Shown: positions 13,006-63,527 of the stretch, piece by piece
Layout of the letters: each line of letters begins with the position of its first letter
Position numbering within the stretch: position 1 is the first letter of the stretch
NCBI RefSeq assembly: GCF_964204645.1
Contig: NC_134035.1
Location: 6,967,101 to 7,031,100 of the forward strand
Source of the DNA: Tubulanus polymorphus
Lineage: Eukaryota; Animalia; Nemertea
Reading direction: 5' to 3'
Length of the DNA stretch: 64,000 bases
Program-made: the position numbers and the translations under genes
Notes under the pieces: generated by a model
Database searches by the model: none
Seen by the model: only the letters and a program-made list of their open reading frames with translations
What the model was told of the DNA's origin: nothing

Positions 13006-14827
13006 TTAATCTGTCTGTATCTGTCATCTATTACCAGATTGTAAGAGTGAATGAAAGATAGTGTGATTGGGTGCATGTTGGGTGAAGGTGTATGACTGCA
13101 TGTGTGTATGAGTTGAGTGAATCGGTGTATGCTAGGGGATTAGAGATTTTATAAGCCTTCATTGGCTTCATCTAATCTCCTCCACAGTATATTAAAACAT
13201 TTCATTTTTGTATATCTCTTTATGACATGTTGTAATTTTATTGTGGAAATAAATTTATTATTATTTATACATCAAAACTGAAGTTTTCCCTTTCATTCAA
13301 AAACTGAATTTATATTGGCTTTAGAAAAGTTATTGTTCAGCCTGGTTCTAAATCCTCATTCGACAAACGACCACAACGATGCACAGTTCCAATACGCTCA
13401 TTTATTTACAATCAGAATACCGTATTGCTTGAACGACTTATCGAGAGAGTGAGTGTGGTTGGCTTCAAAGGTACAAAAATACAAAATTAGACAAGAACGT
13501 TAAAAAGGCCAAACTTTAGTTTGTAATTCAGCAAATCTAAATTGATATTAATACTTACACTAACTATGCCGTACAAGGGGTATATAGAACCAGACTGACG
13601 CCTAGCCAAGAATTCACGGTTTAAATACAGTGCTGGTCATAATCGTGAAAAATGTTGTAAGTTCGCGTAACAAATAACAATTGCAGGATTTAATACGCTT
13701 CGAGCACAATACAATCACACTACTGAGCGTCGAATACATAATACAAATAGCTAAAGAAGTACATTAAATCATCTGATTGGGTATTCCGCGAGAGTACAGC
13801 ATCTTCGCATTTCTGGTAATTTCCATCAAGAAAATTCCTCACTCGTATTGTTGTCAAGAAATAAAATCCGGGCTGGCGACGAATCGAGCAGAGACAATAA
13901 TCTACCGATCCTCTCTCAGTTAGTGTAAACCGGGAACTCCGCAGTTTCTATGAACTACTTGCGGATGTATCAGTGCGCGAGCACCTGTCAGGATAATGAT
14001 GGGGATAACACTTCATTGCCGGGTAAAACCGATATAGACAATTCACTGACAGGTAGGTGTTCATGTGCCTTAAAACTTTCCATAATTCATCAAAATTTTT
14101 GGAACCTTGGCACGACATGCTATGGGCAAATGACGCGTTACAGACACATTTATCGGATTATCAGTTCTATTAGGATTTAACATTATGGGACTATATCCGT
14201 GGCAGTAGAGATACTACGGCAAGATTTTTACCAGCGACGACCCCTATATTGTCTTCGACCATTGAAAGAACGTTGATACATAGAACTACTTCATACAAGC
14301 AATAATTGAGTTTCTGCCTCTGGTAACAATTCAAAACCTCGGGAAACAATAAGTTACCTAAAATCTGACAATTGCATGTTTTAACATCACAACATCATTG
14401 TTTCCAAACATTTTATTTGACACAAGGGGGTAAAAGTCAACCAAGCCAACAATTGCAATGCCCCAATTTTGTCCTTTTTTTAAGCCTGTACACTCTGCAA
14501 TAACTATCATATTCAGTGTCCTTCTCTTTTGCAATAATATAAGGAATCTTGTAATATAAGCCATGATGATTTCTCCAAATATGATACAATTTTAACCATT
14601 CAAGGAAATGACAACATCCATAACTTTTTTATAAGTTGTACCTTTGTATTAGTAATCAACTTTTTCAACTACAGTACCGACATTAGGAGTATAACAATCA
14701 ATGACACCAACAACACACAATATGTCATTGCAGTGAACCGTTAAGGTCAAAGGTAATTATGCAACATCAACTGTGTCATTTTAGAAGCTACGGTTATTAT
14801 GGAATGGTCAACAATCACACGTGCTAC

Positions 14828-15183
14828 GTGTCACTAAACCTAAGACCCATAAACCTAAGACCCGACTCTAAATCATTATTTGTGTACTTTAGACTATTCA
14901 AAATGGTTCTAATATATAGATATTAGTTAAAATGATCCATCGATGGCCTATTTAAATTTGGTTCATTTATCAGAGACGAGATATTTGGTGGTCTTAGGTT
15001 TATGGGTCTTAGGTTTAGTATATTATATATAGGTGTCACTAAACCTAAGACCCATAAACATAAGACCTGGCTCTAATTCGTTATTTGTTTACTTTGGACG
15101 AGATATTTGGGGGTCTTAGGTTTATGGTTCTTAGGTTTAGTATATCATATATAGGTGTCACTAAACCTAAGACCCCCTAAACA
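14828..15183. repeat. Tandem array (~2.3 units) of a small MITE-like unit with internal inverted repeats
   Basis: GTGTCACTAAACCTAAGACC at 14828, ~15033 and ~15155, paired with GGTCTTAGGTTTATGGGTCTTAGGTTTAGT in the first two units. Confidence 0.7.
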
Positions 15184-15505
15184 TCTATTCAATATTTATA
15201 GTTGGTTCCACCCCCCGCTGCCCTTACCCCCGTCACTCACTACGACCCTCGAGCAGAGGAGGTAGTCGTATTAATTTCTTTTTCCCCTTATCATCTGCGG
15301 CGCGTAGCGCGGAGCCCCGCTGATATCAAAAACTACTAAGACAAACACTAATATTTATAACAGAGATCGACCGACCCGACCGTATTATCGGAATCCGGGC
15401 TAAAAAGGAGCGTCGATGGTTTTTTATTAATGAATCATGTTATGTGAGGCAACTAGTTCGTTATCGGCTAGCGCGTTTTGTTCTTCGTACATGCCTACTA
15501 GCTCG

Positions 15506-16820
15506 TTATCCGCTAGCTCGTTCGTTTGTTCTTCGTACATGCTGGCGTAAAAATCTCGGGACAGTTTGGCGTTCTTGTTTGAAATAGCGTTCTCTATGGG
15601 CTTCGTCGTCGAGTAGTTCCATGATGTCCATCGCTCCGTTGTCGTTGATTTCTTTGACTAGTTCTACGAGTATCTCCTCGCAGACCGCCGGCGAAATGTC
15701 GTACTTCGTAGATCCCATGTCGATACGTCCTTTAAACCGTACCGCTAGAAATCTTCTTTCCGCGGCTTCTAGAGCTATGGTGGCGGCGAATTTTTCCATG
15801 GGATCTCTTTCGTTGGTAGTTATCAGAGTCATACACGGCGGGTTGCTCTGTTTCGTCGAATGCACTTTAGCTTCCCACGACGATTGGTACATGGCGAGTA
15901 TCATCGATAGTAGCGCCGAATTGTGCCAGAACGAGTCGGACGCGTCGTCTACTTTGAATACTCTGTGACCGTTCGACATCTCGCACGCTCCTACCCCTTC
16001 GCTATCGTTAGGCATTTGCGAGCTTATCAGGTCGGGAAATAATATTCTCGCCAGTAACGATTTGCCGGCTCCGGCGTCTCCGTAAAAAATTATATGCGGC
16101 GCTCTAGTTATCACGCTCATTCGTGCTTCTATTACCGCGTTCACTAGCACTAGTAATAATTCGTGGTGACCGAGTAGGCGTCCGTCCCACGTCGCTTCGG
16201 TTACCAGTCCCAATATTTGTTTTATCAATATCACCCCTCCTTTCGGGCTCAATTTGACCGTTTCCCGTTCCCGTTTTTTCTTCAGCAGTTGCGCGCCTTT
16301 ACGAACGCGCGGTATTACGCTCAACGGCCAGTTTTTGTAGGCGCGTCTTATTTTCAATTCTTGGACGTTATAGCCGAATTCTTTTACGATTCGCATCGCC
16401 CATTCCGACGATCCGGGTCGGTGATCGTATTCCGCGTACAGTTCTTCTACTCTTGGCGAAGAAATCTTCGTTGACTTTCGCGTTTTGGGTTTCCAGATGT
16501 TGCCGCAATTCGAGCGGTATGGTTTCGGCGTGTTTATACATATATTGTATGTACGCGCCTAATTTCTCGGTCGGTTTCACGTACTCGTTCGCCAACTCGA
16601 TACCCTTCTCCGTCAGTAGTTGTCGTATGGCCGATTCCGATTGTTTGTTGGCCACACCGTTGTCTCCTTTTTGCGTTATTATTACTCCGTGGGCGAAACC
16701 GTCTCCCGGTTCTCGCGGGCCGATGTGTATGCGTACGTCGCTTCGTCCGATACGCGCTTCGAGTCGTACCGATTCACGGTTGCTCGTCGTGAACGACCAG
16801 TTTCTGGCTCTTGTCGACAT
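15506..16820 (-). CDS. rep: Rolling-circle Rep (HUH endonuclease + SF3 helicase), ~437 aa, one frameshift near 16450
   Basis: Motif I ARNWSFTTSN, motif II-like FAHGVI, motif III YIQYMYK; Walker A GDAGAGKS, Walker B FKVDD, motif C LITTN, Arg finger ERRF; the helicase frame is open upstream of its ATG (RVEELYAEYDHRPGSSEWAMRIVK) and overlaps the endonuclease ORF. Confidence 0.88.
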
Positions 16821-17035
16821 GTTCGATTTTCTCTGTAGTCGAATAATCTTCTAGCTATTTCGGTGATGCGCCTTTCGCGAAGTACCCGATTCTCTAGAGC
16901 GCCGTGTTTTATAACCCAGGTATTAGTCACCTCGTCTCTTATCGCTACGAAATCTGCCGTCCTTCCCATGGTATAACCGCGCCACTTGCGTCCGAATAGA
17001 TAACCGGATACGATGAATAGGAAAACGACGATCAT
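16682..17035 (-). CDS. Small viral ORF (117 aa) with N-terminal hydrophobic segment, overlapping the Rep start
   Basis: ATG 8 nt after the capsid stop; MIVVFLFIVSGYLFG then RKWR; fills the gap between cap and rep. Confidence 0.5.
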   Translation of the reverse strand: MIVVFLFIVSGYLFGRKWRGYTMGRTADFVAIRDEVTNTWVIKHGALENRVLRERRITEIARRLFDYRENRTCRQEPETGRSRRATVNRYDSKRVSDEATYAYTSARENRETVSPTE

Positions 17036-17043
17036 AGCTCTAT

Positions 17044-18140
17044 TTATATTCTGTTCTTGTGTAATATCTTATACTCGACCTCGGCCGGTATGTGTATTTC
17101 GGTGGCCGCTACGGCTAGGTTTTTACGAATGGAGTGGTTGTAAATGCACAGCTGAGTTATCAGGGCGCAACTGTTCCACAGGCTGTAGAAGTGTTCGTCG
17201 TACCAATTATCTTTCGACCCTATGTCGACCGTTCTTATAGTCTTCGTCGGATCTGTAGTACTCGTTATTTCGCTACGCAGTACTCCTACCGGTATGTTCA
17301 GGGTTACGCATCCCAGTCCCATGTCGTGGTTCCTGTAACTGCCCTTTTGCGTCAAATGGTTGGCGTCGTGATAATTGCTGCCTGCTACCGTTCGTTTCAG
17401 GTCCCAATCTACCGCCGTCCGTAGCCAGGCTATGGGATTTTGCGGCGCGTTGCTATTGTTCGCCCCCCCCCGTCCGATATAGCCCCTTCGGTCGACAACG
17501 GGAACAGGGTTATTTTCGCGTCCAATACTTTGAATTGATCGTACAAGTTAAAGAACGCCGGATGGTTATTGGGGAATACTTTCCATCCCGGAGTTTCGGT
17601 TAGATCGAAGCAGAAGCTAGTCATTTGCGACACCCTAACCTCCGCCTTATCTCCGTAACCTCCCGAACTCGGATCGCTGGACCAGCCCGTGAACGTTAGA
17701 TACCCTCGCTTAATCAGCGACGTCTGGTGATAGTTTTCCGGTTTTAACGTCGTGTGCGCCGCCATGTCTTGCGCGTTTCCGTAGTCTTCTCCACCGCCCG
17801 CGCTTCTTCTTGCCCGTTTCATCGGGGTTTGTCCGTCCGTGGTTTCGTCCGCCATCGCCGGGAATAGCGCTCTCTTGGTTTTGAATACAGCTGATGTTAA
17901 TCGCGCACCGAAACCCGTTACACCGTTCGCACTTTCCAAGAATTTCTGATCCGCCGAGTTGTATCGCAGGTACGGCGCCCATGAACCGTACTTTTCTTGA
18001 AGTTCCCCGTATTCCTTATCGTGTTGCCTGCAAACTTCGTCTATTCCTTCTCCTCGCTTATTAGAGATATCGTTGAACGGTCCGCAATGAGGTAACCCGG
18101 GTAACGTGTATCCGTGTCTTTTACGTTTCAACGCGGGCAT
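17044..18140 (-). CDS. Capsid protein with N-terminal parvovirus-type phospholipase A2 domain, ~365 aa, one frameshift in a G9 run (17463-17471)
   Basis: KRKR basic motif, LPG..HCGPFN Ca loop, DEVCRQHDKEY catalytic HD, PYLRYNSADQKF; then FNLYDQFKVLDAKITLFP and terminal EVEYKILHK resembling CRESS single jelly-roll capsids; adding one G joins ORF 17430-18140 to ORF 17044-17355 with no stops. Confidence 0.82.
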
Positions 18141-18455
18141 TTACCTATATCCGCGGAACTCTCCGTGTCTAATACCAAAATGTGTAGCGCGGCCTTCCAC
18201 GCCGATAAAAAACCATCAACCCTCATTTTTACCCGGGACTCGGATAATTGGGTCGGTCAGGCCAAATGATGAATAAATAAATGAATTATGAATAAATACT
18301 AAGATGCAATCGGTCCCTGGAGGCGAAGCCGACCTTGCCAATGTTCCCCGGAGGCGAAGCCGACCTTGCCAATATTTATTTTGCCAATATTTATAGTTGG
18401 TTCCACCCCCCTGCTGCCCTTACCCCCGTCACTCACTACGACCCTCGAGCAGAGG

Positions 18456-18843
18456 TATATGTAAAATATATAAAAAGTAAAATAGAAGAGAAATATTTTG
18501 AAGGATCTGGTTTAATGTTTGATGAAATAATATTTATGACTTTACATATGTACAATACAAGAATATAATAAATTACCTAAATCAAAACCAATAGATGAAA
18601 ATAATTTATCATATTTTAAAGATGATAATACATGTATTACCATTTAAAACTAATGCTGTTATAAATGTACATAATTTTGATGATAAATGTTTTCTATGGT
18701 CTATTATTAGTTGTTTACATCCTGCAACTGATAATATTTGTATAGTATCAAATTATAAACAATTTAAAAATAATTATAAGATAGACAATTATCCTGTTAA
18801 AATTAAACAAATACCAAAAATAGGAGATAATAATTTTGAAAAT
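18456..18843 (+). pseudogene. Polinton/Maverick-type protein-primed DNA polymerase B, N-terminal fragment
   Basis: FEGSGLMFDEI, AVINVHNFDDKCFLWSIISCLHP, YPVKIKQIPKI; very AT-rich; continues at 41313. Confidence 0.72.
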
Positions 18844-18870
18844 ATAGCTGCAAAGCAGCGATAACTGCAC

Positions 18871-45968: not shown

Positions 45969-48286
45969 CAAATAATGATGATTTTCAATTAAAGAGATAT
46001 AAAGGCGCGATTCCATATTCATTTTATAAATCGCATAATGATTTTAACATAACTGAATTATTAAAATAACAATTCTATGATGAATCAAGAATCGAATATG
46101 TTAAAGATGGCGTTTATAATAGATCATTGAATATTTGGAATCATTTCAAAATAAAAAATCATGGACAATTAGTAGATTTATATTTAAAGCCAGATGTATT
46201 ATTATTACCTGATTTGAAAGGTTTAGGGATGTAAATCTAAAATATTTTAATATTGATCCATGTGATTGTTATTCTAGCCCAGGTTTAACTTGGGACTGTG
46301 GTTTAAAATTTACTGATATTAAAATGGATTTATTAACAAATATAGATCAATTATTAATGTTTGAAAAATCTATAAGAGGAGGTGTTTCAGGTGTATTAGG
46401 TGATAGATATTTCAATGTAAATGATTATCCTGGATATAAGTTATTATAATATAGATGCAAATAATCTATATGGTTGGGCAATGATCGAACCACAACCTTA
46501 TGGAGTATTTCAAATAACTGAAATTTTACAGCACGAAAATGTTGATAAATTTGATTGGAAGAAAATAATTCTAGATATTGCAGATGATTCAGATAGTGGT
46601 TACTTTTTTGTTGTAGACTTGGAATATCCTGAACATAAAAAATTTAAATCTAGAAATCTAGCATACTGTCCTGAACAGTAAACTGTAACACATGAAGAAT
46701 TATCAAATTATCAAAAAAGAATTAAACCCGATAATCATATTCATACAGAAAAGTTAATGGTAACTCAGGAAATAAATATAATTATGTAGTACATTATAGA
46801 ATTTTGAAATTCTATTCGAATCAAGGAACTATTCTAAAAAAAGTACATAGATATATTTCATTCAGTCAATCTAAATAGTTCGAGAAATATATAGATTTTA
46901 ACACCAAACAGAGAACTAAAGCTAAAACTGATTTCGAGAAAGATTTTTCCAAACTAATGAATAATGCATTCTATGGTAAGACTTGTGAAAATATTCGAAA
47001 TAGAAATGATATTGAGTTAGTTTGTAAAGGTAAAAGAATTAGACATTTACAAACATATCCTAAATTTATTGGTAACAGAATATTTGATGAAAGTTTAGCC
47101 GTTGTTAAAATGAAAAGAACAAGTATGAAGTTTAATAAACCTATTTATGTTGGAGCATCAGTTTTAGAAATATAAAAATTACTGATGTATGAATTTTACT
47201 ATAACGTATTACAACCATTTTGGAGAAAAGCATATAGAAATCTTATATTTTGATACAGATTCTTACATATTAAAGATAAAAACTAGTAATATAACAGATG
47301 ATTTAAAAACATTAAAACATCATTAGGACGTCGTGGTAACACGACGTCCTGTTGGAATCGTGTAAGTTAGTTGGTTAAGACGTAGATAATTTCTCGGAAG
47401 TGACTGAAAGCTTGGTGATATAACTTGCACATTATTTTAGTCATGAATTTTAAAGGATTGAGATTTGTTTCTCGTGGAATTCTATGCGGCAATTGCTGAG
47501 AAATTTCCAAAAAACATGCGATTTTGGCCCGTTTTGGTTGTACGTCGTGGTTGAAGAGTTAACGCTATGCTGTTGTTATGGGATACCGCAATAAAAACAA
47601 ATTATACAGATAATGTTTGATGGAGATATAAATATTTATTAATAAAAAATATATAGGTTTTCAATCGGCACAAATTGGTGGTGTTTAATAATTTATTTGC
47701 GGGACTATTCTCGCTGGACATGAAGTGGAGTAGTCGGAGCAGTACACGTACACGTGCGCCGTTTTCCAAGAATCCGTAAGTATTGTTCAATTTATTTTGT
47801 GAATTGTGTATCTCACATGTCTCAAAACCTCACACGCTTGCACTGCTTTGTGATGGAATATGTCCATCAGTCGTTTTCTATGTTGTAACTGGAGGGTGCT
47901 GCCCTCTCTCTCTCGAAAATACAGAACAATAGGTGATTGTGTTAATATCTTTTGTCCGCCTTTTTACTGGTTTTTGGGTATATTCCGAGTCGATATTTGG
48001 AGGAAACTTCTACTGTGGAACAGGCAGAATAGGACCTCGTTACATCTGGTGGCAGCGTAGTGGGATTTGATTGTGAAAAAACCAGTTGAAATTGAGTTGA
48101 AGCGGTGAACACGTTTTTCTCCGTTTAGTCTGTGTAAATTACTGTTACTTTTTGTGTGTACTTAACGTATTTTTTTACCTACTTCGTAATTCCTAGTACA
48201 TATTTAGTATTTTTAAGTGCCTGTTTCCCCTACATTTATTTGCGGTCCTGTATTTTCTGTGTCATTTATATAAAAGAATAGTAATT

Positions 48287-49405
48287 ATGTCGGATGTTGA
48301 GAATGATGTGTGTGAGCCCTTGGCATTATCTAGGCCTATGTCACCAACGGCCGGAGCTGCACATCATGACCTCCTGGTTAGTGGGGAGGGTAACCTCTCG
48401 TTAAAACCAAAACGTGGCCGTCCAACGAAGACAAAAGCCGAAAATTTGAAAACATCTGAGGATTCCATCCTCCAGCGACTGACTGAAGTGATGGAGAGGG
48501 TCGTGACGAGAGATGCACCCACCACGAAAATGCACAATATTCCGGCACCCAAACCCTATACCATGGGACACAATTTCCGCGTTTGGCTCGAAAGGTTTGA
48601 CGCGTTCGCTGACCTGGCCCAGATTAGTTCTCGCATCAACGGGGGCGAACAGCGTAAATCACACCTGATGATGCAACTTGACCATGAGGCATACCAGGCT
48701 GTCTCGAACCTACGTCTCGACTCGAGCCTGTCGTATGATGATTTCTGTCGGCGGCTATCATCCCGTTTCCAACAAACAAAGACTGTGGATGACTTTAAGA
48801 TGTTGTTGAAAGGGAGGGACCAAAAGACAACTGAATCTGTGGAACGCTATTCCGACGAGTTAGCAGAGCTGGCAAGGAACGCATACCCTGGCATTGCCTT
48901 CGAGCTGCAGGATGAATTGGCCAAAGACCAATTCCTTAAAGGTAATAGCCTACCCGTCTCAGCGAAGCAGTCAATGTATGCGGCCCAGCCAAGTTCGTTG
49001 GCTGCAGCAGTCGCTCAAGCACGGACTCTGGAAACAGCGAGACGGTTGACTGAGGGCACGACTCATAAACAAAAAGTATCCGTTAACCAGACCCAGCTCG
49101 ACTCGACTAGCTCAGCCATAACCAAACAACTCGACGAATTGAAGTCGATGATGGGAACGCTGATGACTCGAGTAGGCCATTTGGAAGCAGTTGTCTCTGG
49201 TAATGGCAATCGTCGACCACCCGCCGATGACAAATGTTGGCGTTGCAGGGATGCAGACCACCCCAAAAACTTGTGCCCACAAGTTAAATGCTATAATTGC
49301 GGGGGGAGTGGTCACTATTCAAGTAACTGCCACCTACCTAAGGGAAACCAGGGAAACGAGAAGCGGGGTTTTCAGGGGGGCAGTGGAAACCCCATCAGGA
49401 AATAG
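48287..49405 (+). CDS. gag: Gag with C-terminal zinc knuckles
   Basis: WLERFDAFA, QKTTESVERY, DQFLKG; CWRCRDADHPKNLC and CYNCGGSGHYSSNC. Confidence 0.92.
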   Translation: MSDVENDVCEPLALSRPMSPTAGAAHHDLLVSGEGNLSLKPKRGRPTKTKAENLKTSEDSILQRLTEVMERVVTRDAPTTKMHNIPAPKPYTMGHNFRVWLERFDAFADLAQISSRINGGEQRKSHLMMQLDHEAYQAVSNLRLDSSLSYDDFCRRLSSRFQQTKTVDDFKMLLKGRDQKTTESVERYSDELAELARNAYPGIAFELQDELAKDQFLKGNSLPVSAKQSMYAAQPSSLAAAVAQARTLETARRLTEGTTHKQKVSVNQTQLDSTSSAITKQLDELKSMMGTLMTRVGHLEAVVSGNGNRRPPADDKCWRCRDADHPKNLCPQVKCYNCGGSGHYSSNCHLPKGNQGNEKRGFQGGSGNPIRK

Positions 49406-49414
49406 TCCCCCCTG
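49351..49414 (+). promoter_or_regulatory. Programmed -1 ribosomal frameshift signal (G GGA AAC + pseudoknot)
   Basis: Heptamer 49351-49357 in gag phase, 7-nt spacer, stem 1 GGGGTTTTC/GGAAACCCC, stem 2 CAGGGGGG/CCCCCCTG; the -1 frame is open into pol. Confidence 0.8.
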
Positions 49415-52400
49415 TACCGCTGTATATACCCCCCGCAAGACGTAGGAAAAATCGGATGAATACGGCAAATGGTCTAACGTGCGATGCAAGTAGAGATGCA
49501 CCTATTGATGGTTACCATCATACTAGCCCCACCACCGTGAGACCATCAAACCATATTCAAATGATATCGAGACCATCAAACCATATTCAAACGACACCTC
49601 AAGATGGATATGTGGTTGCTGGCCCGGCATGTGATTCTAGTGGAGATACACCTACTGATGGTCCGCATCCTACTAGAACCATCACTGTTAGACCACCACA
49701 ACATACCCAAAGTATAGAAGAAAATCGACGTGACCCTTCGGAGAACAGTGAGGCTCCCAGTCCGGCTACGGAAAACACTTGTCACAAGTTGCGCGACACC
49801 AAGGTTCAAACAACAGGGACAGAACCAGCCCAGACGAGCTTAGTTACAAACATCGGAACAGTGAGGTTCCACGCCTCGGGCCTTTTCTGTGATGCCGTAG
49901 TAAATGACCATTCGAAAGCGGTGGTACTCCTGGACACTGGTGCCTCCTGCACAATCATTAGAGGTTCGGTATGGGACTCTAGCAGCCCGACTGGTGAAGC
50001 CGCTGCACTGAGGCCAATCGAAGGAATCGTGACAACGGCTACCGGTCAGCCAATGGAGTTACGTGGATTAGCTGATGTATGTCTGAGAGTTGGAACTGAA
50101 GAATTTCATGTCCCCATGATCGTCAGTGAGGATTTGGCACAAGACTGCTTGCTTGGAAGTGATTTCTTCGAGAAATATGGCTGCAACATAGATTACCGTA
50201 ACAAAGTGCTCCGCTTCGGAAGCCTCAGCGAGGTGCCTGTCCGCCAGAGCCCCAAACGCGCGAGCGCTTGCAGGGTGTTCATCAGTAAGAGCCAAATCAT
50301 TCCAGCTGGATCCGAGGTGGTGGTAAATGGATACATGAAACGGAGTTATGCTCATAATAATTCGACCTCAGGGATGATCAGCAGCTGTGGACGGAATAAT
50401 TTTTGCACTGGGAAAACACTGGTGGTACCGGAGGCAAACCAGATACCGGTTCGGCTGGCTAACTTCTCGGATGAGGCTTGTAGAGTCGACAGGGGCCAGA
50501 CTATTGGTCTATTCTGCCCCCTACAGTCAGTTGACATCATGACTGTCGACGACCATGCTCAAAACCCGTCAACTCCAAAAATCCAGCTGCAGGGTGGTGA
50601 CAATACTGAATTCAAGGACCTCTTGAGAGAATTGAAAATCGACCAGCTTGAAATCCCCACTGACATGAAAACACAGCTTGTTGACATCATACGGGAGCTA
50701 AAGTCAGTATTCTCGATGGGAGACTTTGACATTGGTCGAACAGATTCGCTTGAATTCGAGATTGACACCGGTGACCACCCACCGATAAAACAACATCCCC
50801 GTCGGCTACCCCCCGGTAGGAGAGCTTTTGTTGAGGGGACGACCAAGGAGCTTTTAGAACACGACTTGATCCGGCCATCCACCAGCCCGTGGTCAAGCCC
50901 AATAGTTCTAGCGAAAAAGGCCGATGGTTCCCTGCGTCTATGCTGCGATTACCGCCGACTCAATGACGCAACAGTCAAAGACGCTCACCCATTAGGTCGA
51001 ATAGACAGTACCCTAGAGGCTTTATCGGGCGCAACCTGGTTCTCGTCCCTCGATTTAACTAGCGGATACTGGCAGGTCCCAATAAAGGAATCAGACAAAC
51101 ATAAGACCGCATTCACGACTGAAAACCATCTATTTGAGTGGAATGTCATGCCGTTTGGAGTCTGTAATGCCCCGGCGTCATTCAGCAGACTGATGGCAAT
51201 GGTACTGGATGATGTTGCATGGAAAACATGCCTTATCTACCTGGATGATGTAGTGGTGTTTAGTCATGATCTACCAACCCATCTGACGCGATTACAAGAG
51301 GTATTTCGTTGCTTTCAGAAAGCCGGTCTCAAGCTAAAACCGAGGAAGTGCTCGCTTTTCCAGCGGCGCCTCAAGTTTTTGGGGCATGTAGTAAGCGAGG
51401 CCGGTGTCGAAACCGACGGTGCCAAATGCGATAGAGTCAGGGATTGGCCGACCCCAACGTCAGTTACCGAACTGCGTAGTTTCCTTGGTCTTGTGACATA
51501 TTACTCGCAATTCATCAAGGATTTCGCCGACTTGACAGCCCCGCTACACCGCCTTACGAGGAATGAACCATTCGTCTGGACATTCAAGCAACAACTAGCG
51601 TTTGACGAACTGAAAGAAAAGCTGACCAGCTCCCCTATCCTGGCATTCCCAGATTTCTCGGAGGGTGCTGGAGAGTTCATTTTGGACTGTGACGCCTCTA
51701 ACTGGGCTATCGGAGGGGTGCTGTCACAACTACAACACGATGGTTCTGAGAGAGTGATCGAGTACAGTAGCCGCACGCTGAAAGGTGGAGAGGAGAACTA
51801 TTGTGCCACCAGGCGCGAAATGTTGGCCTTGGTTGACATGATTGATCACTTCCGCCACCATTTACTAGGCAGGAAATTCAAAGTTCGCACAGACCACGCA
51901 GCACTCAAGTGGCTACAAACCTTCAAAAACCCTGAGGGCCAAGTGGCTCAGTGGCTTGAACGCCTGTCGGAATATGATTTCGTGATCGAACATCGAGCTG
52001 GAAGCAAACATTTGAACGCAGACGCCCTGTCTCGCATCCCTAAGAAACAGAGGAAACATGGGGACTGCCCAACTTTTGGTGACACTGGTCCATCTATATA
52101 CCAGGTGACTGCAAAACATCAGGGCGATTTGACAGCGCACTCCACTGGCTTGTCCAGGAACAAAATAATCGAGGCGCAAGTAAATGACCCCGAAATATCA
52201 GAAATTAGGGAGTTCTTGGCCGGAGATGGGGTCAAGGACAAGAAACGGCTACAACGGTGTGGTAGAACAGCGAGGAGCCTCTATAGTCTGGTTGAGCGTC
52301 TAGAGCTTTTAGATGGCATTCTTGCGCTTAAACCACTTCCGGGGGCTACCTCAACGAGACACCGAGTGGTACTACCCATTTCACTGACTGATGGAACCAT

Positions 52401-52534
52401 AGGAGTCATGAGACGAGAAGATACACAATATCCGTGTAAGAAGATAACAAGAGAAATCCCACAATAAGTTCAGCCAAAACGAGAAACTTGAATAGAAGAG
52501 TTATATATATTTGCGCAACGTTTCGGCTAAAGAC

Positions 52535-53776
52535 ATTATTCCTGGTAACGATAGATTCATTTCGTTTGATGCTAGTTCTCTTTTTACCAATGTTCCTCTT
52601 AGGCCTACCCTTGATTTTCTTAAACGGAAACTTCCTTCGTTGGATTTCAATTTTGACATTCCTACTGATTGTATTATCGAATTAATTGAACTTTGCACCC
52701 AGAACTCCTTTTTTAGTTTCAACAATTCTTATTTCGAACAGGTTTTTGGCATGGCTATGGGGAACCCGCTTAGTCCCATTCTAGCAAATCTTTTCCTGGA
52801 ACACGTTGAAACCGAATTACTACCCCTTTACACAGATACTCTCCCTAAACTTTGGTTACGATACGTTGATGATATTCTTGCCCTTATACCTTTTGACTTT
52901 GATATTGATCAATTTCTCACATTTATTAACTCTTTTTATCCCTCCTTGAACTTCACATTTGAATTGGAAGTTGATGGGAAAATCCCTTTCCTTGATGTTT
53001 GTATACACAATTGTTTGTCTTGTCTAAAATTCTCGGTTTATAGGAAACCTACCCACTCTGGAACATACCTACATTATTTCTCCTTCACCGCTCATAACAT
53101 TAAACTTAGTGTTGCCCAAAGCTTATTCCTTCGCGCATTAAGGATTTGTGACCCCCTTTTCTTGGATGATGAACTAACCCAGATCAAGACCTCTCTTAAT
53201 AAATTAGCTTACCCCGACGACATTTTGAATAAAGCTCTCTTGAGAGCCCGTCGTTCACATTTCAGTCACTCTCAAGGGACCCGCGCGCGTAAACAGCCTA
53301 TTATTGTACCTTTTGTACCTTTTCTGGAAAAATCTAAAACTCCCCTCCATCTCTTAAACAAACAACTCATTTTTACTTATAACAACAAACTTAGTCGTAA
53401 TCTTACTCATAACTCCCCCAAAATTGAACCCCTGAACATTGGTGTATATAAAATTCCTTGTAAAGTTTGTAACAAAATATATATCGGCGAAACCGGACGC
53501 GATTTACACAAGCGCATTCGTGAACATAAGAATGATGTAAAGAATTTTAAGCCTGAAAGCGGTGTTGCTAATCACGTATACGAAACCAGCCACAATTTTG
53601 ATTTTGAAAATGCCTCCATAATTTTCCCCTGTTCAGAAAAGATTAAACGACACATTATGGAATCGGCCCTGATTATTGAAAACTTGAAAAATTGTGTTAA
53701 TTTGAATAACGGTTTTTCCCCCCACAACATTTTGATCTCCAAATTTCTCGCTTCTCTTGTACCCCCGTTATACTAA
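52535..53776 (+). CDS. Penelope RT + GIY-YIG endonuclease (N-truncated)
   Basis: SFDASSLFTNVP, GMAMGNPLSP, RYVDD, YRKPTH, GVYKIPC..C..IYIGETGR. Confidence 0.92.
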   Translation: MIPGNDRFISFDASSLFTNVPLRPTLDFLKRKLPSLDFNFDIPTDCIIELIELCTQNSFFSFNNSYFEQVFGMAMGNPLSPILANLFLEHVETELLPLYTDTLPKLWLRYVDDILALIPFDFDIDQFLTFINSFYPSLNFTFELEVDGKIPFLDVCIHNCLSCLKFSVYRKPTHSGTYLHYFSFTAHNIKLSVAQSLFLRALRICDPLFLDDELTQIKTSLNKLAYPDDILNKALLRARRSHFSHSQGTRARKQPIIVPFVPFLEKSKTPLHLLNKQLIFTYNNKLSRNLTHNSPKIEPLNIGVYKIPCKVCNKIYIGETGRDLHKRIREHKNDVKNFKPESGVANHVYETSHNFDFENASIIFPCSEKIKRHIMESALIIENLKNCVNLNNGFSPHNILISKFLASLVPPLY

Positions 53777-54097
53777 TTCCCTCCATTGTTTTGCCTTTAT
53801 CATACGTAGTTTGCTTGTTTCCACTCACTCACTGATTATCGCCTTTCATGTTCCTTCTCTTTGTTTTATTTGATTACCCCTTAGCTTGTCCTCCCGTTTT
53901 AATCACTTTAGCTTGTGTCTTTGTTTATTAATTACTTTAATCTACATTGCCCCTAGTTTGCCTTGCTTACTTTAGCATTGTTTTCTAGTTGTTATGTCAT
54001 TACTTTAATCTATTCCCCTTTCAATATTTTAATCACTCACTCTGCTTCTATTGTTTTGGTCTTGTATAAATATCTTGTAATATTCTCCTGTACTCAG

Positions 54098-54140
54098 TAC
54101 GCCTGATGATGGCTAATAGTCTTTAGCCGAAACGTTGCGC
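54098..54140 (+). ncRNA. Minimal hammerhead ribozyme in the Penelope pLTR
   Basis: CTGATGA (54103-54109), stem II GGCTA/TAGCC, GAAAC, palindromic ACGT stem III, short stem I CGC/GCG. Confidence 0.75.
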
Positions 54141-56052
54141 AAATATATATAACTCTTCTATTCAAGTTTCTCGTTTTGGCTGAACTTATTGTGGGATTTC
54201 TCTTGTCATAGGAGTCATACATCAGGGATTTCCCGGGAAACATCTCAGTACCAAAAAGACAGAGTGCAAAATTTAAGGAAAGATTCTGGGTATTAGGCCT
54301 CTCAGCTAGGGTCAGGGATTTTGTTCGGGGCTGCAAAACTTGCCAAGAGTGCAAGTCCCCGTCCAAACTACCAAAAGCCCCAATGATGTCTACACCGGTA
54401 GGGCGACGCTTCCAGCGTGTACATATAGACATCGTGGGCCCATTACCGAGAACCCGCCGCGGCAATGTCTACATTCTTGTGGCTCAAGATGCATTCACTA
54501 AGTGGCCCGAAGCATGGCCAATTCGCACGGAAAAGGCCTCCGTGGTGGCACGTGCCCTTGTGAACGAGTGGGTCACCCGTTACGGCTGCCCTGAATCCAT
54601 CCATTCGGTCAAAGGCACGAACTTCGAGTCGAAAGTTTTCATGGAGATGTGTAGGATCTTGGCTATTGAAAAGACCAGAACCACTGCCTACCATCCTATG
54701 GGCAATGGGCAGGTGGAAAATTTCAATAAGTCCCTGAAGGCCATGCTGACTACAGCCGTCAATGAGTGTGGAACAAACTGGGACGAGGAACTACCAGCGT
54801 GTTTGATGGCATTTCGTTCAAGCGTCCAGCACTCCACTCTTGAAACGCCGTTCTACTTGATGTACGCCGAGGAAATGTCACTACCAATCGACATCAGCGT
54901 AGGCTTGCCCGAGGACCACCAACCAAGGACTAAGTATGGCATGGACCTCTCTGACCGCCTCACTAAGTCACACAACATTGTTCGTGATCGACTAGTGATG
55001 GCACAAAGGCGTCAGAAAATGGACTATGACCGTTTCGCAAAACGCGGGGGTTACAAGGTCGGGGATCGCGTGTGGCTGATGGCCATTTCTTGAAGAAGGA
55101 CGAGGCATCTAAGTTCCACCGGAAATGGAAAGGGCCTTACGTCGTGACCGAGAGACTATCGGAGGTGAATTACAGGGTTGTCCTGGAACCAGGCGCCGAT
55201 CCGAGGGCGGTGAAGAGAAAGCGGGTTGTGCACTTCAATGATATGAAACCGTGCTTCCTGTCTAGTGAGACCGTGACCATAGGTAATAAAAAACCTAGAC
55301 AGGAACCGGTTAAAACGACCGATCCCGAGGAGCAACCAACCCTCAATGACGACGAGGGGGAGGAAGATGAAGACTGTGTCTGGACACGGTCACACCCCGA
55401 GACAACGGCAGTTATTCAAGAACCTCTTGTAACAAACCCTACCCAAAACCATCGCGAGCCTCCTACTCAAAACCGCTCCAAGCCTGGGCCTTTGAACATT
55501 ACAAACACTGAGGGGCACAGAAGACTCAGGCCCAGAGTAGGGATCAGGCGCCCTAGTCGGTTCGTAAACTCATGTACAGTCAATAACGATGATTCGCTAG
55601 CCAACCAAAATAGGGCCTCAGACCCTTTGGTGGATCCAAACACACTTATAGGACCTCCAGTCGCCTCGGACAAGATTGAGCAGAACAACATTTTTGATAT
55701 AGAACTGATCCAAAATTGCCAGAAATGTCGCGAAGTTCGGTCCCGGATTAACATGAGGAAAGGCTACTGGTTAGAAATGGGCCGGTACCTTAAATCAAAG
55801 GGTTAAATCCTATATATATATTTAGTACCCTTGTATATAACCCTGTATATATATTTACTTAGTTTTAGTAGACAGTTTATTATCATTTGTAACTGGTGGT
55901 GACTAGGATTTCAGACCCCTTGCACCTCCTGACGGTATGCTTGGGACCACCCACATTGCATGATTCGGGTGGTATCTGAATGAACGGAATCTCCGCCATT
56001 TAGTCTTGTCGTTGCAGCCAACTCATGTTTTGAACTATTTATCGTTTCTTGC

Positions 56053-61136: not shown

Positions 61137-63527
61137 CGGTTCCTGAACTTCGCTGAAAAAGCTGAAACACTGAAAAGCTGAAACGCTGAAATAAAAACGC
61201 TGAAATTTCAGGGAATTTCCGAAAACCGCCGAAATTTCAGGGAATTCCCGAAAAACGCTGAAATCGTGCTAGGTACCGACAATACACGTTTTGAAATGTT
61301 TTCCGGGCCGGTGTCCGCTGACGAGTCCTGAACCGTGTTTTATGCTCTACCTTCGGTTACAGAGACATGCCCGAAGGTCGTCGTCATGATCGACTTGATC
61401 GATTGCGGATTGCGTGGATTGTTAGATGTGTTTTTTGCCATAGTTTTATGTGCATATACCGGTACGATCTAACAATGAAGTTATCACTTCATTTGAATAA
61501 ATTCTTAATCACAGTAATATTAATTCACAATATTTTTTCTTATGTTTGGTGATTTCTTGCAACTTATCATTGCCAAGTCTCATACAAGTAGTAGCTGAAT
61601 GAAAGTACAGTTGAAAGTACAGTTGGGTTATCAGGCTGAACCTGATAACCCAAATTAAGTGCTAGCATGGAACTAATGATTATTTTGATTCTATTTTCGG
61701 TGTCATTGAAATTCGTTAATAAAGGTTCAACCGTCATAGTATACTGTACTTAGCATTGCTACAATTGGGTGCCATATTTCTACAATTTCTACAAGGAGGA
61801 AGGAATCTTTAAGTGTCTTTGTTCCCGGGTAGGGTACGGGGTAAAACCTGGTTTACTTTCTCTTTCGACTTGCCGGAGACTACTATCTGCAATGTATTGC
61901 ATGCTTTGATGTGTCTGGCCTATAGGAGTCGAACGATATTTTTTTCCCATACACAGGCATGGCTTTAGTGTAGATGAAGGCTAGGCACTGCACATTGTGG
62001 ATTGACTGGAACTCTTAACTCACAAAATTAAACGAGTCAACAAGAAAGATCCAATAATTGGACATTTGTCTAACTATATTATTTAACAGCTTGAAATAAT
62101 ACATAACACATTCTGCAAGAGTATACAAAGGAAATCAGTTCTTACATTATATCAGAATCAATAGTTCGCTTAACTAGAATTCTGGTTCCATTGCTTCATA
62201 TTCTAATGAAATCCACTAGTATACCTTAGAATATCGCTTAGCTTAAGACTAAAAATTTGGTACCAGGAAACGGGGAAGAAAAGTGGGTGTACTGTTCATC
62301 CGCAATTGACTTATGTCTCTCTGGTTGAATCAAGTTATAATTGAAATAGCATTCGAATAGCCATTTTATTTTTAAAAATTGTGTCATTCAGCTATCCTGC
62401 TGCAAATTTCGCAGTTGAAGTTTACTGGTGCCATCTGATTTCTCAGTATCTCAAAAAATTTGCACATTCTAAGCCTGAATCTAAAAATAGAAAAAGGTGC
62501 ATTTTAGTCGGATATAAAAGAATAGTGGCTAATACACCCTGGACTATATAGCCTGTGGGGTGGGCCTAGTTTGAAAGCACTGAGGTCCGAGAGAACAGCA
62601 CTTAGTAAATAAATACTGAAATTAAACTTACAAAACACCCAGTACTTGAGATGATGTACTTGACAAGAAGTGTCACCAGCTAAGCAAATCAACTTTGTCT
62701 ATGACTCCTCCTTTTATAGATTCAGTAGTAGTCTAAAAATAAGAATCGGTACATTTTTCTAACAGTTGGTATGTCATTTCTTCAAAAAAACTAATTATTA
62801 TCACGCCACAGCAAATAAATTATTCACAGTTGTTGAATGGTTAGCCCGATTTAGATTAATTGGTTGACGCTAATCAGTATGACCCATACGTAGGGGCCTA
62901 CTGCATGCCATTGGCGTCAATCCATTCCATTCCATTCCACAGTGAATTAAAAAGAAATTTAGTTAGATCCCTTTTGTCCAAAAGCTGCATCATTTATATA
63001 ACTAGCTGTCAAATTTAATTTACCTCCTTCAGAGAATACCATAGTGACATAGTCCGTCGCCCATCAACGTGTTGACAAAAGAAAAGTTGCTCCATGTTTT
63101 ATACATGAACGTTCAAATAAGATATTTTGCGTCTTGCAGGGAATATTGAGCATAGTGTTTAAGTTGGCTTGCACGGATTGTGAATGGGTTTTCCTCATTA
63201 TGCTGCCTGTATGCATTAAAAATCCGGATTTCAAGCGAATTAATTTGTCCAACAAGTGGCCCTCTAAAAGTATACTCCACACATACTGTCCATGCGTGTC
63301 TCTGTAACCGAAGGTAGAGACTAAAACACGGTTCAGGACTCGGCAGCGGACACAGGCCCGGAAAATATTTCAAAACGTGTATTGTTGGTACCTAGCACGA
63401 TTTCAGCGTTTTTCGGGAATTCCCTGAAATTTCGGCGTTTTTCGGAAATTCCCTGAAATTTCAGCGTTTTTATTTCAGCGTTTCAGCGTTTCAGTGATTC
63501 AGCTTTTTCAGCGAAGTTCAGGAACCG
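61137..63527. mobile_element. MULE-like DNA transposon with ~230-bp TIRs, no recognisable transposase
   Basis: TIRs 61137-~61366 and ~63298-63527 with GCTGAAA sub-repeats; 10-bp TSD GGTAAATATA (61127-61136, 63528-63537). Confidence 0.87.

Follow-up and report, generated by a model that had tools for sequence, protein, structure and literature searches.

What kind of virus, if any, left the element at positions 15190–18455 of a 64,000-nt stretch of contig NC_134035.1 (the window, in which all positions are counted)? The element, a 3,195-nt unit (~3.2 kb) bounded by 70-nt direct repeats, differs in GC content (0.495) from its two flanks (0.358 and 0.353), and we found no second copy in the window. 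Its minus strand reads, in order, a capsid gene that opens with a phospholipase A2 (PLA2) domain, a small open reading frame (ORF) and a gene for a replication protein (Rep), with one break each in the capsid and Rep genes. On balance, we regard it as the endogenous copy of a virus whose lineage is unclassified, places the capsid gene first, probably has a linear single-stranded (ss) DNA genome and likely infects invertebrates. The coordinates and motifs given in a preliminary description of this locus were confirmed, its limits coinciding with the direct repeat 15190–15259/18385–18455; the one-strand gene order, the small ORF and a pair of 52-nt inverted arms are additions to it. The coding features are as follows, with P and L numbers denoting the homologous proteins and related loci described below.

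17430–18140, minus strand: capsid gene, part one (236 aa in its present state; comprises PLA2, a basic linker and the first shell half)
17874–18113, minus strand: PLA2 domain of the type found in the parvoviral VP1-unique region (VP1u; capsid aa 10–89, PF08398)
17463–17471, minus strand: capsid frameshift break, inside a run of nine G/C
17044–17472, minus strand: capsid gene, part two (142 aa; its homologs are the C-halves of P0005, P0007 and P0038 and of the L006 and L008 capsids)
16682–17035, minus strand: small ORF (117 aa; hydrophobic N-terminus; overlaps the Rep start in a different frame)
16452–16820, minus strand: Rep, part one (123 aa; HUH endonuclease, motifs I–III)
15506–16450, minus strand: Rep, part two (314 aa; helical linker and superfamily 3 (SF3) helicase)

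A parvovirus-type PLA2 domain at the capsid N-terminus

The capsid ORF begins at 18140 and runs MPALKRKR..LPGLPHCGPFN..DEVCRQHDKEY..PYLRYNSADQKF..GFGARLTSAVFKTKR, with LYDQFKVLDAKITLFP also present within it. Its residues 10–89 match PF08398 with an E-value of 3.5e-14 (53 bits against a curated cut-off of 23.9), and they keep the GPFN loop as well as HDxxY and the Asp that comes later. The best PDB match of this domain is a parvoviral VP1 N-terminus (E 1.3e-13), and VP1 or capsid proteins account for 32 of the 33 PDB matches listed. PF00740 (Parvo_coat) found no match in the window capsid or in those of L008 and L010. The earlier view of the locus, that an ssDNA virus bearing a PLA2 of parvovirus type lies here in what looks like an endogenous state, is upheld by the PF08398 match on a capsid without a parvoviral VP profile match.

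The first capsid ATG (18140) has a weak context, with T at −3 and C at +4, and the second in-frame ATG (17855), directly after the PLA2 domain, a strong one, with G at both −3 and +4; a single out-of-frame ATG lies between them, and the L008 capsid likewise has a Met after its PLA2 domain. This pairing of weak and strong start sites makes a minor long, PLA2-bearing capsid and a major short one likely, as had been proposed, and leaky scanning past 18140 to 17855 would produce them.

Nine of 13 related metagenome loci show the capsid-first order

Relatives came from a scan of Joint Genome Institute (JGI) metagenomes with the closest PLA2s as query, which yielded 13 loci. Because L002–L005, L006/L007, L008/L009 and L012/L014 are near-identical (98–99.9% over long stretches), they represent fewer independent insertions than 13. 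The window Rep was matched in 10 of the 13, though Rep was not the query, with helicase identities to the window of 27–45% and E-values of 1e-28 to 1e-37 in nine loci and 3e-7 for the short L011 piece. In eight loci, some 2 kb separate PLA2 from a Rep downstream of it on that strand, and the capsid is ahead of Rep on one strand in nine; the ninth is L010, where Rep follows a capsid 3′ end and is itself followed by another capsid start, a truncated one. In L011 a cut Rep is joined to a capsid end. The frames of L008 are unbroken and comprise capsid, small ORF and a 658-aa Rep. The window small ORF matched no Pfam family; at its position the relatives have an ORF of 119–133 aa, whose sequence likeness to it is not significant. 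Genome length in the relatives is about 4 kb, with L008 and L009 nearly whole, and the loci are flanked by unrelated DNA, L013 adjoining reverse-transcriptase-like text. The first metagenome scan and a GTDB scan returned no relatives, and one further scan an RNA virus only.

Two ORFs of L008 have no counterpart in the window: one of 130 aa that includes a hydrophobic stretch and overlaps the PLA2 region (L008:101–493), and one of 233 aa overlapping the Rep tail (L008:3031–3732). Separately, P0002 and P0152, whose PLA2s are close relatives, come from ENA contigs 0.85 and 2.8 Mb long and probably represent insertions into the genome of another host.

Rep and, tentatively, capsid body lean towards CRESS DNA viruses

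A phmmer search with the capsid against 1.84 billion representative sequences gave 232 matches, and the best 150 of these 232 were all made via PLA2. Both pieces of the capsid body weakly picked out one cluster (P0005, P0007 and P0038), to which part two aligned over 134 columns (probability 89%, E 2e-6); part two scored 26 bits against its own family profile, with 200 shuffles reaching at most 4.5. A word-based homolog search with the body returned the seeds alone, and a PDB sequence search nothing significant. Comparison of the family profile with nine PLA2-capsid clusters (parvoviral, tombus-like, gemini-like, those of parvo-like hybrid viruses (PHV-like), and others) and with densovirus VP gave probabilities all below 1%; parvoviral VP sequences diverge so widely that sequence alone leaves room for a parvoviral shell. 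In the ESM Atlas, the body of the P0007 homolog was closest to clusters of Cressdnaviricota, the phylum of the circular Rep-encoding ssDNA (CRESS) viruses (0.95, 204 of 256 features), with Circo_capsid, Viral_coat and Shotoku_capsid in lower rows and no parvoviral cluster among those listed; Circo_capsid was annotated on 14% of one Atlas cluster near this body. We predict a CRESS-type single jelly roll for the shell, which is about 270–330 aa long. The YDQF motif, earlier described as typical of circular CRESS viruses, is not conserved in the homologs and so is not a family mark. We also considered programmed frameshifting at the break in the capsid and set it aside, as the relatives have no break there.

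Rep starts at 16820 with MSTRARNWSFT and is broken near 16450. It has HUH motifs I (WSFT), II (FAHGV) and III (YMYK) and the SF3 motifs GDAGAGKS, VDD, ITTN and ERRF; motif II reads HQHG or HRHG (HxHG) in the relatives against FAHG in the window, and RARxW (I), YxxK (III), GxxGxGK[ST], DD, ITTN and ERRF align across all of them. Walker B DD with an ERRF arginine finger is the CRESS style, as opposed to EE. In the window Rep pieces and in L008 and L010, Viral_Rep (PF02407) and Parvo_NS1 (PF01057) had no match and RNA_helicase (PF00910) reached an E-value of 0.06 only; word-based homolog searches gave nothing for either Rep part, PDB sequence searches nothing significant and PHROGs nothing useful.

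At the level of profiles, the helicase family matched 74 circo-like Reps with 94% probability over 121 columns, one PHV-like Rep (L015) with 93% over 35, 48 Parvovirinae with 84% over 79 and six densoviruses with 2%. The highest single Rep score to the family profile was that of L015 (14.6 bits), which shares the stretch PHIxLxGxxGxGK..L..LYP. The HUH part was collinear across motifs I–III with the CRESS profile only, comparisons with Parvovirinae or densovirus N-domains giving E-values of 0.25–0.5. For the window helicase, the ESM Atlas listed a Parvo_NS1/E1 cluster at 0.91, the one row that bears on a possible likeness to papillomavirus E1. Helicase trees were built with 44 and 29 rows out of 136 extracted helicase domains, the parvoviral NS1 references excluding hamaparvo-, brevi- and metallo-type proteins and the oomyvirus reference being L015 alone, with 35 aligned columns. 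In the 44-row tree the Rep family forms one clade (100/100) on the CRESS side. Rep is thus best described as an orphan that leans CRESS: its motifs agree with the CRESS-type label given to it before, but it matches no Pfam family and the tree cannot place it.

Genome ends and mode of replication

Outside the genes, we identified these features.

18388–18395, minus strand: TATA-like TATAAATA, a putative promoter element read from the sequence, within the capsid-end direct repeat
18385–18455: direct terminal repeat, capsid end, including a G-rich tract and the TATA-like site
18305–18366: two 31-nt tandem copies (84%), then more TGCCAAT units; putative Rep-binding iterons
18297–18303, minus strand: CTTAGTA, copy one of only two in the element
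18205–18256: inverted arm, capsid end (52 nt, 83% to the other arm; 65–116 nt before the capsid ATG)
15423–15428, minus strand: AATAAA, likely poly(A) signal, overlapped by the Rep-end inverted arm
15376–15427: inverted arm, Rep end (52 nt; about 80–130 nt past the Rep stop)
15334–15340, minus strand: CTTAGTA, copy two
15190–15259: direct terminal repeat, Rep end (98.6% to 18385–18455 over 71 columns, E 7e-32)

Both 52-nt arms sit just outside the genes, and the spacing is similar in L002 (83–108 nt before the ATG and 73–98 nt past the last stop), as it is for the capsid-side arm in L002, L006 and L014. Beyond these arms, the relatives have long hairpins, a different one at each end: a capsid-end hairpin at L012 414–620 (z −12.0, 0/200 shuffles) and Rep-end hairpins at L002 4829–5061 (z −14.3, 0/100 shuffles) and L010 2602–2875, the last with 85-nt perfect arms. 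Between L002 and L010, the Rep-end hairpin differs in the orientation of its inner part, which gives the higher alignment score when reversed (153 vs 117); the tips are TTT and AAA. An inverted inner hairpin is the flip/flop pattern of hairpin resolution. Rolling-hairpin replication of this kind is described for Parvoviridae in the profile by the virus taxonomy committee ICTV. We therefore regard a linear, hairpin-ended genome as likely for this lineage, probably packaged in the predicted CRESS-type shell. The HUH-SF3 Rep would nick and resolve the hairpins, and PLA2 on the long capsid form would likely breach the endosomal membrane as in parvoviruses. CTTAGTA also occurs in hairpin stems of relatives, though not in L002, and is a lead for a candidate nick site; its shuffle count (11/5000) overstates its weight, as the motif was chosen post hoc.

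For the direct repeat to arise, more than one unit's length of DNA must have been inserted, so that its source was a circle or units joined head to tail; what the repeat shows is that the template was circular or tandem, and it does not show that the virion genome was circular. The window copy may have shed its hairpins at an intermediate stage, either circularised or head-to-tail, and inserted as slightly more than one unit, leaving the 70-nt repeat. The chief rival is a circular genome replicating by rolling circle, with the 70-nt repeat as a duplicated origin, inverted arms that close a panhandle and, in the relatives, hairpins that represent a cruciform origin or a separate sub-lineage. 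The direct repeat with its 3,195-nt period, the window copy lacking detected terminal hairpins and the CRESS-style Walker B and arginine finger all agree with it, as do the existence of circular-type CRESS genomes with PLA2 capsids, two of which (L064 and L066) begin at TAGTATTAC, and the occurrence of TAGTATTAC in L010 and L006, in the region of the Rep-end hairpin. Against it, the relatives' two ends bear different hairpins, a natural Rep-to-capsid junction was found in none of the 13 loci, and linear viruses also give direct repeats through tandem or circular intermediates, as adeno-associated virus does. Nor did the element ends contain NANTATTAC or another nonanucleotide in a stem-loop; three sites with one mismatch were seen, and neither end folds better than shuffles. 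We favour, by a modest margin, a circle as by-product over a circle as virion genome, and consider a circular virus unlikely, if the most serious of the competing explanations; the adjective 'circular' in the preliminary description is not established, given the relatives' terminal hairpins (one in two orientations) and the lack of a nonanucleotide stem-loop in the window.

A near-palindromic motif, possibly a shared promoter or Rep-binding element, is found three times in L002: at 722 (capsid end), 2485 (between capsid and Rep) and 4739 (Rep end).

The element in sequencing reads

Reads came from runs of two studies with one species label, four runs of one study containing 56–82% of sampled words; three of these four and a whole-genome run of the second study were mapped. 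Among the runs listed as containing the element, none was an RNA run. Relative to the unique left flank, depth over the element was about two-fold in run X1 and about five-fold in X5; parts of it are also overlapped by contigs of about 90% likeness and higher depth. This raised depth and the divergent contigs indicate that more copies exist, or a related family, or free DNA, and the same species may carry further copies or free forms of the virus. Contigs of X1 and X2, and 34 of 41 X5 reads, differ in length from the window at the Rep break; the main X1 contig and 4 of 42 X5 reads do so at the capsid break, where most X5 reads thus match the window state. No listed read contig spans the whole stretch.

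Weighing the proposed lineage against its alternatives

Several observations tell against an endogenous linear ssDNA virus. Linearity is borrowed from the relatives and not seen in the window copy, the ends of which show no hairpin (z 1.7 and 0.08). Whole hairpins occur in few loci (one at the capsid end; L002/L003 and L010 at the Rep end), all of which look integrated; junctions are rearranged in L010, L011 and L012, and the palindromic origin of a circular genome can invert too. The relatives are distant, with a Rep about 30% identical to that of the window and a capsid body barely alignable pairwise, and neither a relative nor a free genome came out of IMG/VR when it was scanned with alignments of Rep, of the capsid and of the family. 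For the shell, the first half of the capsid scored 0.4 bits against its own family profile (shuffles up to 4.0; hhalign 0.4%), the profile reached less than 1% with all of eight circo/cyclo-like capsid sets, and the AlphaFold2 model of the capsid homolog is of low confidence (predicted local distance difference test (pLDDT) 30), as is that of the L008 Rep (pLDDT 38). For Rep, the HUH match to CRESS is weak (probability 6%, E 0.006), the family sits on a very long branch (4.6) in the helicase tree, and the 29-row approximately unbiased (AU) test rejects neither a parvovirus (p-AU 0.63) nor an oomyvirus grouping (p-AU 0.51). Lastly, integration at the window site rests on the assembly, not on junction reads, and the host is deduced from flanking repeats only.

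A very divergent parvovirus, or a sister group, with gene order reversed and shell reduced, is improbable in our view, more so than a circular CRESS virus. PLA2 in the VP1-unique region is common, not universal, in Parvoviridae, where the NS cassette lies ahead of VP or the genes are ambisense, an arrangement that the window lineage does not have. Judged by the ICTV profile, the likeness extends to the VP1-unique PLA2, likely nested capsid forms, likely animal hosts and, in the relatives, terminal hairpins, a probably linear genome and a size of about 4 kb; the Atlas row for the helicase and the unrejected tree grouping, with its restricted NS1 references, point the same way. The lineage departs from parvoviruses in its capsid-before-Rep order on one strand, its DD and ERRF motifs in place of EE, its small shell and 3.2-kb unit, its want of Parvo_NS1 and Parvo_coat matches in the window, L008 and L010, its HUH part, and a capsid homolog closest to CRESS clusters. 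Nesting of Rep within NS1, which would have indicated an ordinary densovirus insertion, was not seen, although the tree cannot reject the parvovirus grouping. A virus-derived HUH mobile element spreading by Rep-driven copy-and-paste, with the direct repeats as termini, would fit the several copies per genome equivalent with their related higher-depth family, the many distinct loci among the relatives and the direct terminal repeats that Replitrons also bear in eukaryote genomes, but is very unlikely, because Replitrons, as described in the available part of PMC10288648, have repeats of a few bases and an HUH Rep without helicase or capsid, whereas here the full capsid gene is retained and the relatives end at varying points with junction scars and no fixed termini.

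Relation to known viruses

PLA2 on a CRESS-like virus, the architecture put forward in the preliminary description, is not new: it is already found in Oomyviridae and in three small CRESS genomes. Oomyviridae (parvo-like hybrid viruses, order Lineavirales) are described in the accessible parts of PMC12451638 and PMC13426907 as Cressdnaviricota with linear ssDNA, a PLA2 capsid, a circovirus-like Rep and likely stramenopile hosts; the window lineage resembles them in its probably linear ssDNA genome, its CRESS-leaning Rep and its PLA2-bearing capsid and differs in its likely animal hosts. Likewise, the Oomyviridae-like L015 has Rep before capsid, the opposite order; Rep likeness is confined to 35 columns, and a profile of 16 PHV-like capsids did not match the lineage's capsid body (0.1%). 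The IMG/VR genomes L064, L066 and L072 (2.7–3.1 kb) pair a PLA2 capsid N-terminus with an HUH-SF3 Rep, but, unlike the orphan Rep, theirs are ordinary circo-like (Viral_Rep and RNA_helicase matches in the two scanned), and they bear a TAGTATTAC/CAGTATTAC nonamer, Arg-rich capsid arms and capsid types unmatched to the lineage. PLA2-capsid fusions are also reported in RNA viruses (PMC11903649), and PLA2 among circular dark-matter clusters by Tisza et al. (PMC7000223), in both cases as far as the accessible text goes. In such RNA viruses the same entry enzyme sits on an unrelated capsid, and genomes and replication proteins differ. Given Oomyviridae, the three small genomes and the RNA-virus fusions, the PLA2 graft is not the novelty. 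The PLA2X of adintoviruses is a further case of this enzyme on an unrelated capsid, again with different genomes and replication proteins.

Among the PLA2 homologs, P0008–P0150 include many non-parvoviral capsid types, in clusters of 20, 16, 15 and 8 proteins; tombus-like P0028 and P0054 (PF00729) and gemini-like P0115 (PF00844) bear PLA2 (87 of 150 scanned), and the parvoviral cluster makes up 13 of 96 PLA2 matches of at least 300 aa among the matches listed. Judged from these sequences, PLA2 on non-parvoviral capsids is common. In addition, the tombus-like RNA virus contig L001:3–2401 encodes a PLA2 where its second ORF begins.

We assign the lineage to neither Parvoviridae nor Oomyviridae, because its gene order disagrees with both and its capsid with that of Oomyviridae, and likely it stands at family level outside described groups; by analogy, it may work like a parvovirus or oomyvirus. 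The capsid-first order was not seen among the reference viruses compared, no close match to a classified virus with the same architecture emerged, and the openly readable main-text literature yielded no description of a capsid-first, hairpin-ended, likely animal lineage with orphan Rep and capsid. Parvovirus-related sequences occur in many invertebrates, and the accessible text of PMC5013282 does not show this architecture among them; PMC13595969 contributed nothing further. Oomyviridae are the only other linear, Rep-encoding group with PLA2 capsids that we found described, within those same partial sources; a second such group, in animals, with Rep and capsid families of its own and the genes in the opposite order, would imply that hairpin ends and the PLA2 module were gained more than once, or that it is an intermediate. 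Parvoviruses are thought to derive from circular rolling-circle ancestors. More tentatively, we propose a family-level animal ssDNA lineage, either one that gained the parvovirus lifestyle independently from CRESS parts or a CRESS–parvovirus intermediate, endogenous in at least two host genomes, the window copy having changed to or passed through a circular form. Endogenous copies would supply a host, and in L008 and L009 nearly whole genomes, for a lineage unreached by Pfam and IMG/VR scans.

Genomic setting

An Rfam search gave no match. The DNA flanking the element contains long interspersed nuclear element (LINE), Gypsy-type, Harbinger-type and Pif1-like repeats, which suggests a eukaryote host, likely an invertebrate animal. 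Abutting the capsid end (18456–18860) is AT-rich decayed coding text of very high read depth and without Pfam match, which we take to resemble a Polinton/adintovirus protein-primed polymerase. Abutting the other end (14825–15182) is an array of short palindromic units with 30–79-nt direct and inverted copies. The array, read at high depth, is probably a non-autonomous repeat of the host. Farther away lies a Gypsy-type long terminal repeat (LTR) retroelement (48197–55806; 130-nt identical repeats at 47849 and 57404), split at about 52444–54209 by a piece with 91-nt inverted ends and another reverse-transcriptase-like ORF. A pair of 234-nt inverted repeats (96%, 1.9 kb apart) at 61137–63527 is likely a DNA transposon remnant.

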